Virus record (IMG/VR): IMGVR_UViG_2706795407_000001
Location: 1-64,000 of that record
Origin: a virus
Taxonomy: Duplodnaviria > Caudoviricetes
Strand: one strand, 5' to 3'
Length of the DNA: 64,000 nt
Positions 4,878 through 62,443 of this stretch are shown here, piece by piece. Position 1 is the first letter of the stretch. Every line of letters starts with the position of its first letter. Position numbers and translations under genes: made by a program. The notes below the pieces were generated by a model. That model was not told the origin of the DNA, searched no databases, and worked only from the letters and a program-made list of their open reading frames with translations.

Positions 4878-5501
4878 TTGCCAGAGATTGAGGAAACTGT
4901 TACGACCGAAACGGTTGAACAGGAGCCCAGCATTGTTGCTGCCGATTCTCCCGAAGAGGAGCCTACCCCGAAGCCTACCGAAACGGTGGAGTTCTGGAAG
5001 CAGAAGGCTCGCGAGCAGGAGAAGCGCGCTAAGGCTAACGCCGCAGCCCAGGAGGCCCTTGAGGCATTGAAGGCCGAGCAGGCTAAGGCCCTTGAAGAGC
5101 TTGAGGCGTTCCGCGCCGAGAAGCTCACTCAAGAGGAGCGCGACGCGCAGCAGCGTGAGAAAGAGGCGCAGGAAAAGGCTGATGCTATCCGTGAACGCGA
5201 TGCGGCGCGCCAGGAGGCTCTGCGTTGGCGTATCGCGGCAAAGCACGGCATCACCGATGAGGATGCCGAGCTTTTCCTGACCGGCACGGACGAGGAAACC
5301 CTTACTAAGCAGGCGGAGCGATTCACTTCGCTGCAACCCAAGCCGGGTAAGGGCAATGTTATCCCCTCTGCTGGTCAGCAGCCCAAGGAACCCCCGTCTC
5401 TGGCGGAACAAATCAGGCTAGCTGAGGAAGCTAAGGACGTTGACACTGCTATGCGCTTGAAGGCGCAGCAGTTGGCGGCGCTTGCTCAGAATAACGTTTA
5501 A
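4878..5501 (+). CDS. Capsid scaffolding protein
   Basis: Acidic, coiled-coil E/K/A/Q-rich ORF between portal and capsid; AGGAG RBS before TTG at 4878 (ORF track starts at 4842). Confidence 0.85.
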   Translation: MPEIEETVTTETVEQEPSIVAADSPEEEPTPKPTETVEFWKQKAREQEKRAKANAAAQEALEALKAEQAKALEELEAFRAEKLTQEERDAQQREKEAQEKADAIRERDAARQEALRWRIAAKHGITDEDAELFLTGTDEETLTKQAERFTSLQPKPGKGNVIPSAGQQPKEPPSLAEQIRLAEEAKDVDTAMRLKAQQLAALAQNNV

Positions 5502-53809: not shown

Positions 53810-54535
53810 TTGAAGGTTGCGCTGATCGCTGCGACACAAATTGATGTTGGCGCGCTCAAGGGTATTGGTTATCGGCCTGCCGATTTCCACGATGATGGTG
53901 ATGATGTTTTCGGCGATTATGATGCGGATGAGCTATCGGAATTCGCTGGCCGCAACTGCTACCGCTCGTTCGACCGGCCCAATCCCGCCACACGGGAGAA
54001 TGCTGACTATCTGAAGCACATCCTCGATGTAAGCCACGAGTCTGTGCTTGAGCACGCCTCGGCTACGTTCTACATCGAGGCCAGCCGGTCGGTGCTGACC
54101 GAGCTAGAGCGACACCGCCACCTGTCGTTCTCGGTTGTGAGTCAACGGTATGTGGACGCGAATAGCCTGCTGTGCAACATACCGCCTGGCATCAACAACG
54201 ATGAGGTAGACCCGGACTTCGACCTCTCGGATCGGATGTGTGATTACTACCAAGACGCGCTGAGGTTCTACAACGAAATTGTTGAGTATCTGACGCGGCA
54301 GGGCAAGTCGCGCAAGCAAGCGCGAGAAGCCGCTCGCTCCGTCCTGCCCAACATGACCGATAGTCCGATGGTCGTCACCGGTAACCACCGGGCGTGGCGG
54401 TACGTGATCAAGGCCCGCTGGCACGAGGCGGCGGACGCCGAGATTCGTGGGTTGGCGGGGGAGTTGTTGAAGCGGTTGCGGGAGATCGCCCCGAATTGTT
54501 ATCAGGATATTCCTGATAAACCGTATTCGTATTAG
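53810..54535 (+). CDS. thyX: FAD-dependent thymidylate synthase
   Basis: HESVLEH, RHRHLSFSVVSQRY (RHR-x7-S), AREAAR, GNHRAW. Confidence 0.95.
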   Translation: MKVALIAATQIDVGALKGIGYRPADFHDDGDDVFGDYDADELSEFAGRNCYRSFDRPNPATRENADYLKHILDVSHESVLEHASATFYIEASRSVLTELERHRHLSFSVVSQRYVDANSLLCNIPPGINNDEVDPDFDLSDRMCDYYQDALRFYNEIVEYLTRQGKSRKQAREAARSVLPNMTDSPMVVTGNHRAWRYVIKARWHEAADAEIRGLAGELLKRLREIAPNCYQDIPDKPYSY

Positions 54536-59267: not shown

Positions 59268-60608
59268 ATGGAGGAATACGTGGAGAAGAGTAACGGTCGT
59301 AGATATATCGGCAGTGATGTCTACACTGAGGCGCGTAAGCGTATCGCGTGGACGTTCGACAACTTCGAGCGGGTCTACCTGTCATTCTCCGGCGGTAAGG
59401 ACTCAGGTGTTCTCCTCAACCTCGCGTTGCAGCACATGGAGGAGACGGGCGAGACACGCAAGCTCGGCATCCAGATCATGGACAATGAAGCCAACTATGA
59501 GTTGTCCCTAGAGTTCATGCACCGCATGATGCGTAAGCATGCCGACAAGCTGGACATTTATTGGTGCTGCCTGCCCATCACGCTTCCCTGCACGGTGTCC
59601 AGTTATGCGGTGGACTGGCAGTGTTGGGGGGAGCAGGATAAGGACCGCTGGATACGTCCAATGCCTACCGATCCGTACATTGTTAACCTGGAGAACCATC
59701 CGTTCCCGTTCTTTAAAGAGAACATGCATTATGATGCGTTTTGGGATGGTTTCTCTGAGTGGTATTCGCAAGGTAAGTCGTGCGCGAACATGATCGGCAT
59801 TCGCGCGTCAGAAAGCCTGAACCGTTTCCGGGCGATCATGAACGACCGGAAAGAAATGCTCGGCGGACACTACTGGACCAAACGAAACACCGAACACACT
59901 TACAATGTGTACCCAATCTACGATTGGAAAGGTGAGGATATTTGGATCGCCAACGAAAAGTTCGACTGGGACTACAACAAGCTGTACGACATCTTCTACA
60001 AGGCGGGGATTCCGCTCAGTAAGATGCGTGTGGCGTCACCGTTTATGTCCGAGTCGAAGAGTTCGCTGGGGATGTATCGGGTGATTGATCCGCACGTGTG
60101 GGCGAAGCTGTGTGCCCGCGTTGGTGGGGCGAACTTTGTCGCCCAATACGGTAAACAGTTGTCTTACCGCTCGTTCACCCTCCCGAAGGGGCACACGTGG
60201 GAGTCGTTCACGAAGTTCCTCTTGGATACCCTGCCGGAAGAGGTGGCCGCAAATTTTAGGCAGCGCTTCGACCAATCGATTGAGTTTTGGGGCTCGGTCG
60301 GGCGCGGACTCCCCGAGGACATCATTGCCGACCTGGACCGCATTGGTGTAGATTACCGGATCAACGGCACCACACCGCACGGCGGCAATCATTTGCGTCG
60401 AGTGGTGATTGAGGTTCCGCCGGATCATTTGGATGAACTGCGAGCCCACCCCAGCATGGTTACTAGCTGGAAACGGTTTGCGATCACGATTCTGAAAAAT
60501 GATCACACCTGCAAATATCTGGGTCTGCAGCCTACGCAGGAGCAGCAGGCTAGGCAGAAGCAGATTCAGGCCAAGTACAAGTCACTGAATGGGAGGGCGA
60601 CTAAATGA
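59268..60608 (+). CDS. ibrA: IbrA-like PAPS-reductase/PP-loop protein with DUF3440-type C-terminus
   Basis: SFSGGKDS PP-loop, GIRASESLNR, YPIYDW, MRVASPF, SWKRFAITILKND. Confidence 0.9.
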   Translation: MEEYVEKSNGRRYIGSDVYTEARKRIAWTFDNFERVYLSFSGGKDSGVLLNLALQHMEETGETRKLGIQIMDNEANYELSLEFMHRMMRKHADKLDIYWCCLPITLPCTVSSYAVDWQCWGEQDKDRWIRPMPTDPYIVNLENHPFPFFKENMHYDAFWDGFSEWYSQGKSCANMIGIRASESLNRFRAIMNDRKEMLGGHYWTKRNTEHTYNVYPIYDWKGEDIWIANEKFDWDYNKLYDIFYKAGIPLSKMRVASPFMSESKSSLGMYRVIDPHVWAKLCARVGGANFVAQYGKQLSYRSFTLPKGHTWESFTKFLLDTLPEEVAANFRQRFDQSIEFWGSVGRGLPEDIIADLDRIGVDYRINGTTPHGGNHLRRVVIEVPPDHLDELRAHPSMVTSWKRFAITILKNDHTCKYLGLQPTQEQQARQKQIQAKYKSLNGRATK

Positions 60609-61504
60609 AGGTGATCAAGGGGAGTGACCTTGAGTCGATGGGTCGGGCGATGGAGTTCACGCCAGGCGGATTCTTTAGTCACCGGTTTCTGCTGGAGGAG
60701 GATGGCCTCGGCTATACTGTGACCCGCACTACGATCCCTGAGTGTCAGCCGCAGCGCTGGCATTACCCCGACCATCTTGAGTCTTGCTACTGCGTTTCCG
60801 GTGTTGGTGAGCTGGTCGATTTGAAGACTGGTGAGAAGCATCGGATCGAACCTGACACCCTTTATGCGCTCGATAAGCATGATGAGCACACTTTTCAGGC
60901 CATCGGCGGGCCGGTAACACTCATCTGCATGTTCACCCCCGCTCTGCGGGGGAATGAGGCGCATAAGGACGGGCACGACTACCGGAGCGATCTGTCGCCC
61001 GTGTACGCGGTGCGTTCCGTTCCCATTGAGAAGGTGACGGCGAACGATTACAACCCCAACAGTGTTGCCCCGCCCGAGATGGAACTGCTGGAAACGTCCA
61101 TCTGGGAGGACGGTTACACTCAGCCGGTTGTCACGGTGTACGACGAAGAGAATGACAAGTACATCGTGGTTGACGGTTTCCACCGTTACCTCACACTGCG
61201 GAACTCTGAACGTATCCGCGAGCGCGAGCGTGGAATGCTGCCGGTGGTGGTGCTGCGTAAAGATATGTCGGATCGCATGGCTTCGACCATCCGCCATAAC
61301 CGTGCGCGCGGCTCTCACAACATTGAACTCATGTCGCAGATCGTGGCCGAACTGGTCGAAATGGGCAAGGGCGATAGATGGATCTGCCAACATATCGGCA
61401 TGTCGCCAGACGAGCTACTGAGAATGAAACAGGTCACCGGCCTCGCATCCTTGTTCGCAAACAGGGAGTTTTCCGAGGCGTGGGAGCCGGAGAGTGACGA
61501 GTAA
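60605..61504 (+). CDS. ibrB: Fusion of ectoine-synthase (EctC)-like cupin and IbrB/ParB-like domain
   Basis: N-terminal RFLLEEDGLGY, HLESCYCVSGVGE, YALDKHDEH, FTPALRGNEAH; C-terminal ANDYNPN, DGYTQPVV, VVDGFHR, STIRHNRARG. Confidence 0.88.
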   Translation: MKVIKGSDLESMGRAMEFTPGGFFSHRFLLEEDGLGYTVTRTTIPECQPQRWHYPDHLESCYCVSGVGELVDLKTGEKHRIEPDTLYALDKHDEHTFQAIGGPVTLICMFTPALRGNEAHKDGHDYRSDLSPVYAVRSVPIEKVTANDYNPNSVAPPEMELLETSIWEDGYTQPVVTVYDEENDKYIVVDGFHRYLTLRNSERIRERERGMLPVVVLRKDMSDRMASTIRHNRARGSHNIELMSQIVAELVEMGKGDRWICQHIGMSPDELLRMKQVTGLASLFANREFSEAWEPESDE

Positions 61505-61868
61505 GCAGATATACAGGATCACATATCCGAACGGGAAAATCTATGTCGGCATGGACTTGACCGGGGACCGGTTGTACATCGGCAGCCCCAGTCTTCGGTC
61601 AGTCATTGCCGACGACCTCGGTATTGATCCGAACGTTTTCCCGAAACGTCCGTTAGCTCGTTCGACCGTTGTCGACGGGGCGGAGGATGACTACACGCTT
61701 TCGTTCCCGAATTTGGGTTTGACGTTGCGGAAGGAAATCCTTTGGGAGTCTGACGACGCGTCGGACGACGAGGTGCGATCCATGGAAATGGAGTTGATTC
61801 GCGCCACCAGGGCGTGCGACCCCGATATCGGGTATAATCGATCCCCCCGGAGGTGGATTGAAACTTAA
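61494..61868 (+). CDS. Stand-alone GIY-YIG-like nuclease
   Basis: IYRITYPNGKIYVG, E-x-ELI, IGYN. Confidence 0.75.
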   Translation: MTSKQIYRITYPNGKIYVGMDLTGDRLYIGSPSLRSVIADDLGIDPNVFPKRPLARSTVVDGAEDDYTLSFPNLGLTLRKEILWESDDASDDEVRSMEMELIRATRACDPDIGYNRSPRRWIET

Positions 61869-62256
61869 ACAAGTCTGGCATCCCGTTCATCAATGGGAAG
61901 AGGTGGCCCACAACATGTGGGGCAAGGTTGACGACAGGGCAGCCTACCTCGAAAAAGCCATACAGTTCACGGGCAACCACGAACTGTATGGCTTTTTTAT
62001 GCGCAGGGTATGCAAGGAATGGCCTATCAGCACCGAAAACGCGTTCACCGATCCCCACTTGAACCATAAGGCGTGGGTGGGCCATGCGGCGTGCGCGCTA
62101 GCCATGGGGTGTCCAGAGGATATAGTTCGTAAAGCGTGGAGTTACTTGTCGGATGAGCAAAAACTATTGGCAAATTCAGAAGCAAGCGCAGCAATATCCG
62201 ACTGGCGTAGGGCCTACATCGCGAATAAAGGCCTATGTGAAGATGTGGCAGGATAG
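61858..62256 (+). CDS. Hypothetical protein of the Ibr module
   Basis: WHPVHQWEE, WPISTENAFT, NHKAWVGHAAC, VRKAW; overlaps both neighbours. Confidence 0.75.
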   Translation: MKLKQVWHPVHQWEEVAHNMWGKVDDRAAYLEKAIQFTGNHELYGFFMRRVCKEWPISTENAFTDPHLNHKAWVGHAACALAMGCPEDIVRKAWSYLSDEQKLLANSEASAAISDWRRAYIANKGLCEDVAG

Positions 62257-62443
62257 ATGCTACGGCGACAACATCCCCGATGAGCTGCCGGATGGACTAT
62301 TGTGGTCGGGTCGAGCCCCCTCGTGGAAAGCTATAGCGATTTGTCTTCTGCGGAATGATTTCAGGTTGCACAAGTTGGGGTACACGACCGAGCCTGGCGA
62401 TTGGGCTCGGGCTGCCTTGGAGATGGCGAAGCGCAAGGGGTAG
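62153..62443 (+). CDS. Small paralog of the IbrA (DUF3440) C-terminal domain
   Basis: YVKMW...IPDE...PSWKAIAICLLRND..LGY parallels SWKRFAITILKND..LGL in IbrA; start uncertain. Confidence 0.7.
   Translation: MSKNYWQIQKQAQQYPTGVGPTSRIKAYVKMWQDRCYGDNIPDELPDGLLWSGRAPSWKAIAICLLRNDFRLHKLGYTTEPGDWARAALEMAKRKG

Follow-up and report, generated by a model that had tools for sequence, protein, structure and literature searches.

The window analysed here covers the first 64 kb of the IMG/VR virus record IMGVR_UViG_2706795407_000001, which is 90,460 bp long and is rated complete by CheckV. We found that an open reading frame (ORF) at 60605–61504 on the (+) strand, 299 amino acids long and open throughout, encodes a two-part protein in which a cupin domain of the ectoine synthase (EctC) family is followed by an IbrB-type ParB-like domain. 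From its sequence and predicted structure, the ORF appears to join, in a natural and intact fusion, a catalytically competent iron cupin of the EctC family to an IbrB-type ParB/Srx–helix-turn-helix (HTH) protein, and conserved gene order suggests that the product is a subunit encoded by a conserved phage cassette, IbrA–cupin–IbrB–g5–g6. The cupin is most likely an accessory catalytic subunit of an IbrA/IbrB machine that modifies nucleic acids or nucleotides. We put the probability that it is an accessory subunit of the IbrAB cassette, and not an osmolyte gene, at roughly 85%. The full mechanism, in which the cupin would cyclise or open an amino-acid-derived group attached by IbrA and IbrB to phage DNA or to a nucleotide, has about even odds in our estimate.

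Architecture and recurrence of the fusion

A preliminary description of this ORF, made from the sequence alone, had proposed that its first ~126 residues follow the EctC pattern and run without a stop into an IbrB-like domain, and both statements were borne out by profile hidden Markov models and structure comparison. Pfam Ectoine_synth (PF06339) matched residues 1–126 (60605–60982) with an E-value of 1.3e-32 and 113.1 bits against a cut-off of 27, spanning profile positions 1–123 of 127. Solved EctC enzymes were matched by sequence as well, namely 5bxx from Sphingopyxis alaskensis (E = 6.5e-20) and 5onm, 5onn and 5ono from Paenibacillus lautus (~3e-16). In an AlphaFold2 (AF2) model of the fusion computed with 52 homologues, the cupin part had a predicted local distance difference test score (pLDDT) above 90. 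Its best fold match in the PDB was EctC 5by5 (E = 2e-13, template modelling (TM) score 0.91, root-mean-square deviation 1.7 Å, 35% identity), with other cupins following at ~1e-7, six orders of magnitude behind.

The cupin is connected through a short linker of 4–5 residues (residues ~127–130, 60983–60994) to the IbrB part (residues ~131–299, 60995–61504). The linker is modelled with low confidence (pLDDT 57 for the block 121–130), and stand-alone IbrBs align only from residues 123–131 on. PHROG 2159 matched the IbrB part with an E-value of 8.3e-92, and residues ~123–296 are 59–67% identical to proteins of Streptococcus, Lactobacillus, Fusobacterium and gut phages that carry the annotation IbrB or ‘ParB-like partition protein’. 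Pfam ParB_N (PF02195) gave a sub-threshold match on residues 136–200 (21.2 bits against a cut-off of 26.3) and is listed in the precomputed Pfam marks of nearly all homologues of the fusion; a Foldseek search matched the IbrB part to ParB 7bm8 (E = 7e-7). Three motifs were invariant in the 52 fused homologues: ANDYNPN, VDGFHR (D190, G191, F192, R194) and STIRHNRARG (S227–G236). The latter two we take to be the DGxHR-type motif and the arginine-rich patch of a putative ParB/Srx nucleotide site. With the HTH-like helical segment at the C-terminus of the AF2 model, these features characterise the second half of the protein as a predicted IbrB-type ParB/Srx plus HTH module. We rejected a frameshift or assembly artefact as the source of the fusion because the same cupin–IbrB architecture recurs in hundreds of independent sequences.

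Directly upstream of the fusion lies IbrA (59268–60608, + strand), a 446-residue protein with a PP-loop domain of the phosphoadenosine phosphosulfate (PAPS) reductase family followed by DUF3440 (PAPS_reduct, E = 1.5e-10; DUF3440, E = 6e-55; PHROG 2302, E = 4e-126). The junction between the two genes (60591–60608), as read from the sequence, comprises a GGGAGG Shine–Dalgarno sequence at 60591–60596 and an ATGA in which the IbrA stop overlaps the start of the fusion, and through this overlap the fusion is predicted to be translationally coupled to IbrA.

A scan of viral contigs with the window cupin as a single sequence returned no matches. An alignment-based scan of IMG/VR returned at least 131 contigs with a related cupin, 80 of which were analysed together with Pseudoalteromonas phage XCL1123 to give 81 loci. 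Cupin and IbrB shared one ORF in 28/81 loci and were adjacent genes, with gaps of 2–180 nucleotides (nt), in a further 44; g5/g6 separated them in six, IbrB lay upstream of the cupin in two, and one contig ended before IbrB. IbrA was immediately upstream of the cupin in 77/81 loci, and homologues of g5 and g6 followed in most. All told, the cupin adjoined IbrA and/or IbrB in 80/81 loci, the exception being at a contig edge. The fusion singled out in the preliminary description is therefore a recurring form of this pairing but not its sole form, as the cupin is commonly a separate gene and is optional between IbrA and IbrB. Fusion in about one-third of the loci together with adjacency in nearly all others makes a strong Rosetta-stone and synteny argument, and indicates that the cupin and IbrB would work as physical partners in a complex or pathway to which IbrA, g5 and g6 also belong.

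A second scan, keyed on the IbrB motifs, matched at least 579 viral contigs, and we classified the best 80. Among these, 25 carried the fusion, 25 carried a separate cupin gene and 30 had no cupin. In the 30 cupin-less loci IbrA abuts IbrB directly, which suggests that the cupin is a module inserted precisely where these two genes meet. Both g5 and g6 were detected in 46/50 loci with the cupin vs 2/30 without it, and IbrA in the six cupin-less loci shown was 37–43% identical to the window IbrA; the cupin variant therefore appears to be a distinct sub-type of the IbrAB cassette. By these gene-content comparisons, the cupin, g5 and g6 co-vary as an apparent optional trio inserted into that sub-type.

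Public databases already contain many members of the fused family. The same ~300-residue architecture is seen in at least 120 protein clusters (at 90% identity), and four ESM Atlas clusters contain 423 members with the fused architecture, 93–100% of them viral. Isolated phages present a different picture, as 224 records have an IbrB homologue and XCL1123 alone has the cupin also. When one genome per bacterial species was searched, three of the best 80 cupin relatives were of the cassette type, on contigs of metagenome-assembled genomes (MAGs) of Gemmatimonadaceae, Saprospiraceae and Planctomycetota; of the other bacterial relatives, one was in an ectABC cluster and the rest were solitary genes. 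A quick, unrooted maximum-likelihood tree of 104 cupin domains (129 columns) grouped the cassette cupins in one clade (Shimodaira–Hasegawa-like approximate likelihood ratio test support 99, stem 0.51) that contains neither ect-cluster EctCs nor the solitary bacterial proteins. The window cupin shares a long branch with viral relative L003 (79%) and the Gemmatimonadaceae MAG copy. Fused and split states need seven changes on this tree, a rough figure given that the interior of the cassette clade is poorly resolved, and fusion or fission would therefore have recurred. We regard this cupin-bearing form of the IbrAB cassette, itself poorly understood, as real, widespread and well supported; the window locus is one more member of a numerous family.

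The surroundings of the cassette were compared by clustering all ORFs from 84 cassette loci. Only IbrA, cupin/IbrB and g5/g6 were widely shared. The variable neighbours included YqaJ exonuclease, DnaB, primase-helicase, ERF, AAA_24, DUF669 and a superfamily 2 helicase, and the window cassette is flanked by a PD-(D/E)XK exonuclease and an AAA_25 ATPase. From these predicted functions, the cassette appears to sit in a replication/recombination module.

The EctC-type active site

Roles of individual residues were taken from the structures of P. lautus EctC (PMC6344544) and transferred by alignment. The iron ligands (Glu-57, Tyr-84, His-92) correspond to E59, Y87 and H95 of the window cupin, so that the candidate metal ligands named in the preliminary description, within ‘HLE’ (E59) and ‘YALDKHDEH’ (Y87 and H95), are the residues predicted by the alignment. 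The substrate and product ligands of P. lautus EctC are Trp-21, Ser-23, Arg-25, Asn-38, Thr-40, Tyr-52 and Phe-106 (PMC6344544). Five of these are kept in the window cupin, as S25, R27, T42, Y54 and F110, and Cys-104, a conserved cysteine near the active site that is not a ligand, corresponds to cupin C108. Trp-21, which packs against the substrate at C3/C4 and forms a stack with ectoine, is replaced by F23, and Asn-38 by threonine.

We compared these positions across 59 non-redundant cassette cupins, 19 EctCs encoded beside ectB and 26 solitary bacterial EctC-type proteins. The metal triad and the equivalents of S23, R25, T40, Y52, H55 and F106 were invariant in all three groups. Position 21 was tryptophan in 19/19 ect-cluster EctCs and in none of the cassette cupins, which have phenylalanine (44), glycine (14) or methionine (1); it was glycine in 17/26 solitary proteins. 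Two further positions set the cassette cupins apart from ect-cluster enzymes: position 61, two residues after the metal-binding glutamate, is cysteine in cassette cupins and most solitary proteins vs valine in ect-cluster enzymes, and position 97 is phenylalanine vs leucine. Position 38 varies in every group, and we dropped Asn-38 as a discriminating residue because the ect-cluster EctCs mostly carry histidine there (14/19).

Taken at the level of aligned residues, the cassette cupins appear to keep the catalytic machinery and the residues that hold an alpha-amino-acid head group, whereas the wall of the pocket that fits ectoine is systematically changed. The viral clade shows no variation in its catalytic residues, which makes it plausible that cassette cupins retain EctC-type chemistry or ligand binding. 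The equivalents of R27, T42, Y54 and S25 hold the alpha-amino-acid head group, and their invariance argues for an amino-acid-like moiety, free or tethered, as the probable occupant of the pocket.

The scores against EctC profiles follow the same division. On PF06339, related cassette cupins scored 124–150 bits, above the window cupin, and a set of strong bacterial EctCs, most of them confirmed to adjoin ectB, scored 154–204. On the NCBIfam ectoine synthase profile PRK13290 the window cupin scored 118.1 bits, under the naming cut-off of 128. It had been stated that the window has no ectA or ectB, and we extended this to the whole 90,460-bp record, in which searches for EctA and EctB gave no bona fide match, with no positive control available in this genome. 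No ect-linked class was found among the cassette loci.

Proposed role of the cupin and alternatives

EctC chemistry is reversible: with the help of a Lewis acid, an amine attacks the carbonyl of an amide, water is lost and a cyclic amidine is formed. Enzymes of the PP-loop superfamily (TilS, QueC, GMP and NAD synthetases, DndC, TtuA) adenylate a carbonyl or carboxylate or drive sulfur insertion. In the mechanism that we favour, IbrB would bind DNA through its HTH segment and a nucleoside triphosphate through its ParB/Srx domain, and IbrA, as a PP-loop ATP pyrophosphatase carrying a cluster of conserved cysteines, would activate the target by adenylation. The IbrB-tethered cupin could then catalyse a metal-assisted cyclodehydration of the EctC type (a cyclic amidine from amide and amine), or the hydrolysis that reverses it, on an amino-acid-like group that the complex would build on, or supply to, phage DNA or a nucleotide during replication. 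The preliminary description had suggested that EctC chemistry is applied to a nucleotide or DNA adduct. The tie to IbrB and IbrA stands, through fusion and adjacency, and retained chemistry is plausible; an adduct as the substrate, however, found no support.

Several points weigh against this mechanism. The two-domain AF2 model has a predicted TM score (pTM) of 0.47, so that its inter-domain geometry is not confident. A search of the phage for base-hypermodification genes found no ThyA-type hydroxymethylase and no tRNA-guanine transglycosylase (TGT), only an ordinary flavin-dependent thymidylate synthase, ThyX (53810–54535, + strand; PF02511, E = 1.7e-48), ~5 kb upstream of the cassette. Given the small EctC pocket and the kept head-group residues, a free small molecule fits at least as well as a tethered one, and many IbrAB pairs occur without any cupin. 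In the literature we found no study of a cupin–IbrB fusion or of IbrAB chemistry. No published IbrAB phenotype is known to us other than the activation of prophage eib genes in E. coli, reportedly described by Sandt et al. in 2002.

A possible, if unlikely, alternative is that the cupin is a sensor or scaffold: it would bind a metal or metabolite without turnover, or dimerise, and so control IbrB, which with IbrA would be a DNA-binding regulator of phage gene expression. Cupin–HTH regulators are common, and a Vibrio HTH_3–cupin regulator (1y9q) was among the fold matches. In phage records IbrA/IbrB carry the annotation ‘co-activator of prophage gene expression’, and the IbrAB core exists without the cupin. 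IbrB is without the C-terminal dimerisation domain of canonical ParB and EctC is a dimer, so that a fused cupin could supply dimerisation. The cupin also evolves much faster than its partner, with 44–57% identity to the window protein across loci compared to 75–90% for IbrB. Over this diverged clade, however, nine catalytic or ligand positions are invariant, which is beyond the needs of a scaffold, though a ligand sensor could also keep them. Moreover, more than half of the loci encode the cupin as a polypeptide of its own, and its co-variation with g5 and g6 resembles an extra step in a pathway more than a switch.

Rather unlikely, in our judgement, is that the cassette makes or destroys a free metabolite derived from an amino acid or nucleotide, perhaps against host defence, with no marking of DNA. 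The ParB/Srx domain would then serve as a kinase or an NTPase in the manner of SerK, SbnI and sulfiredoxin, and not as a DNA clamp. Proteins of the ParB/Srx fold do include small-molecule kinases, and residues 155–200 weakly match SbnI (E = 0.015) and SerK (E = 0.064) in NCBIfam; these matches are far under the cut-offs and probably reflect the shared fold alone. Conservation of the alpha-amino-acid head-group residues suits a free metabolite, as do the closest bacterial relatives of the cupin, 124-residue solitary EctC-type genes of Streptomyces with ~50% identity (L083/L084, gene 5001–5375). The one Streptomyces locus checked lies in a gene cluster for secondary metabolism whose other members include TrpA-, TrpD-, PRAI- and IGPS-like genes as well as an acyl-CoA dehydrogenase, an AMP-binding enzyme, carrier proteins and a ketosynthase; judged by this gene content, the EctC fold would there have a second non-osmolyte use, unrelated to the first. 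Against a purely metabolic cassette are the HTH-like helical part that IbrB is predicted to keep and the location in a replication/recombination module, and we found no acyltransferase or aminotransferase in the cassette that could make the substrate.

A more specific form of DNA modification would be a hitherto undescribed hypermodification of phage DNA by the cassette, with an ectoine-like cyclic amidine derived from an amino acid. In this scheme the acceptor or donor would be adenylated by IbrA and the DNA brought into position by IbrB, and ring closure on the adduct, bound to DNA or to a nucleotide, would fall to the tethered cupin. We find this doubtful. If true, it would be the first non-osmolyte function for solitary EctC-type enzymes.

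Finally, the gene is very unlikely to be an ectoine-producing osmostress gene, that is, an auxiliary metabolic gene whose product would cyclise N-gamma-acetyl-diaminobutyrate of the host with only an incidental link to IbrB: this has in its favour family membership with an apparently intact metal site, automatic database names such as ‘L-ectoine synthase’, two virome studies that interpret viral ‘ectoine synthase’ genes as osmotic-stress auxiliary genes (PMC13079714, PMC12647753) and the ectoine that a solitary P. syringae EctC gave in a Halomonas elongata ectC mutant (PMC5924519), but it is made unlikely by a cupin that is never beside ectA or ectB, with neither found in the phage, that scores below the naming cut-off and lower on PF06339, that falls in a clade separate from ect-cluster EctCs, that has lost the Trp-21 whose replacement in the W21A variant of P. 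lautus EctC leaves 9.7% activity (PMC6344544), and that is locked to IbrA/IbrB. Because the cupin–IbrB pair belongs to a conserved phage cassette, we consider a role as a salt-stress gene very unlikely. The osmotic-stress interpretation is accordingly unlikely for the lineage studied here (at least 131 IMG/VR contigs and more than 400 Atlas proteins), in which the gene is a component of an IbrAB-type cassette.

What the accessory-subunit reading offers is a way into two poorly understood groups of proteins. What solitary EctC-type proteins do has been a recognised puzzle ever since they were first found (PMC5924519); through the fusion, one such lineage gains named partners, and cultured phage XCL1123 makes its function directly testable. 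Many phages and prophages carry IbrA/IbrB pairs, for which an attached enzyme whose type of reaction is known offers a rare clue to the chemistry.

Cassette partners and comparison with known systems

IbrA keeps the PP-loop motif SGGKDS. Three of its cysteines (C108, C119 and C415) are invariant and three more (C100, C101 and C282) nearly so. Four of the six form a CC-x6-C-x10-C stretch (C100, C101, C108, C119) reminiscent of PP-loop sulfur transferases that bind iron–sulfur clusters and of DndC, and from this conservation the IbrA cysteines could bind such a cluster. A profile search of the PDB with IbrA gave no match. The PADLOC defence-system library gave weak local similarity of IbrA to DndC (E = 1.7e-5) and to BrxP, and nothing for the fusion, g4, g5 or g6.

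Downstream of the fusion on the same strand, g4 (61494–61868) is a 124-residue ORF outside the conserved cassette. It is wedged between IbrB and g5, overlapping both, and has a GIY...YVG-like N-terminal motif. Only one of the 81 loci has a g4 homologue (L048:2556-2825), located there between IbrA and the cupin and giving a weak Pfam GIY-YIG match below the cut-off (E = 0.0076). By its motif and placement, g4 is probably a small mobile GIY-YIG-like element that invaded the cassette.

The conserved partner g5 (61858–62256, + strand) encodes 132 residues that AF2 models as all-helical with high confidence (pLDDT 94.7, pTM 0.88). It had no Pfam match, no PDB sequence match and no PDB fold match (Foldseek E ≥ 2; VIA Z ≤ 4.3), and we rejected g5 as an EctA-like acyltransferase on these results, the confident helical model included. 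The other conserved partner, g6 (62153–62443, + strand), encodes 96 residues and overlaps g5 by 104 nt in another frame. It matches PHROG 15645 (E = 1e-6) and, weakly, DUF3440, and resembles a C-terminal piece of the DUF3440 region of IbrA. The g5/g6 overlap is kept in both frames in close relatives, and in distant loci g6 is shorter and separate.

Other arrangements of the cupin were seen as well. Two three-domain variants of 483–499 residues (L014:6001-7476 and protein P0106) have ~190 additional residues separating the cupin from IbrB, in which methyltransferase profiles gave weak signals below threshold (FtsJ, E = 0.014; Methyltransf_31, E = 0.029); judging from these signals, a third enzymatic module may have been recruited. 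The EctC family as a whole comprises 431 clusters at 50% identity with E ≤ 1e-3 and includes further multi-domain forms: P0239, P0257, P0268, P0283, P0306 and P0338 are tandem double-cupins (250–300 residues) or 380–425-residue proteins with a single EctC-like domain.

Among known systems, the closest parallels in DNA modification pair a ParB-superfamily protein with an enzyme acting on DNA. In phosphorothioation, DndB occurs with DndC, a PP-loop/PAPS-reductase-family enzyme as in the window, and in 7-deazaguanine modification DpdB occurs with the base-modifying enzyme DpdA (PMC10853773, PMC12839542). Unlike the window cassette, the Dnd and Dpd systems have no cupin; conversely, the similarity of the window IbrA to DndC is weak and local, and we found no DndA, DndD, DndE, cysteine desulfurase or TGT partner.

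The EctCs of ectABC(D) clusters (5ONM/5ONN/5ONO of P. lautus; 5BXX/5BY5 of S. alaskensis) share with the window cupin the Pfam family, the fold, the unusual Glu/Tyr/His iron site, the S23/R25/T40/Y52/F106 ligands and a conserved C-terminal FxPxLxGxExH segment. They differ from it in that the window cupin has phenylalanine at Trp-21 (phenylalanine or glycine across most of its clade), cysteine in place of valine at Glu+2 and phenylalanine in place of leucine at position 97, and in that the cassette cupins form a separate clade without ectA/ectB, are fused or adjacent to IbrB, and, for the window cupin, score below the NCBIfam threshold. The solitary bacterial EctC-type proteins described by Czech et al. 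2018 (PMC5924519) likewise have no ectAB neighbours; most share Cys-61 and many are without Trp-21. In contrast to the cassette cupins, they are bacterial, stand-alone, in a clade or clades of their own, and none is linked to IbrA/IbrB.

IbrA/IbrB pairs such as ibrAB of E. coli ECOR-9 and the pair of Streptococcus phage CHPC877 place the same two families (PHROG 2302 and PHROG 2159) side by side. Compared to the window, these classical pairs are without a cupin, which only 1/224 phage records with an IbrB homologue has, and their gene order can differ. That one record is Pseudoalteromonas phage XCL1123 (MN313256), a cultured phage with the same cassette of PAPS reductase, EctC-like, ParB-like and g5/g6 homologues (QGJ84328–QGJ84331). 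There the cupin (130 residues, 42% identical to that of the window) and IbrB (178 residues) are two adjacent genes, and the depositors’ annotation reads ‘ectoine synthase/ParB multidomain protein’.

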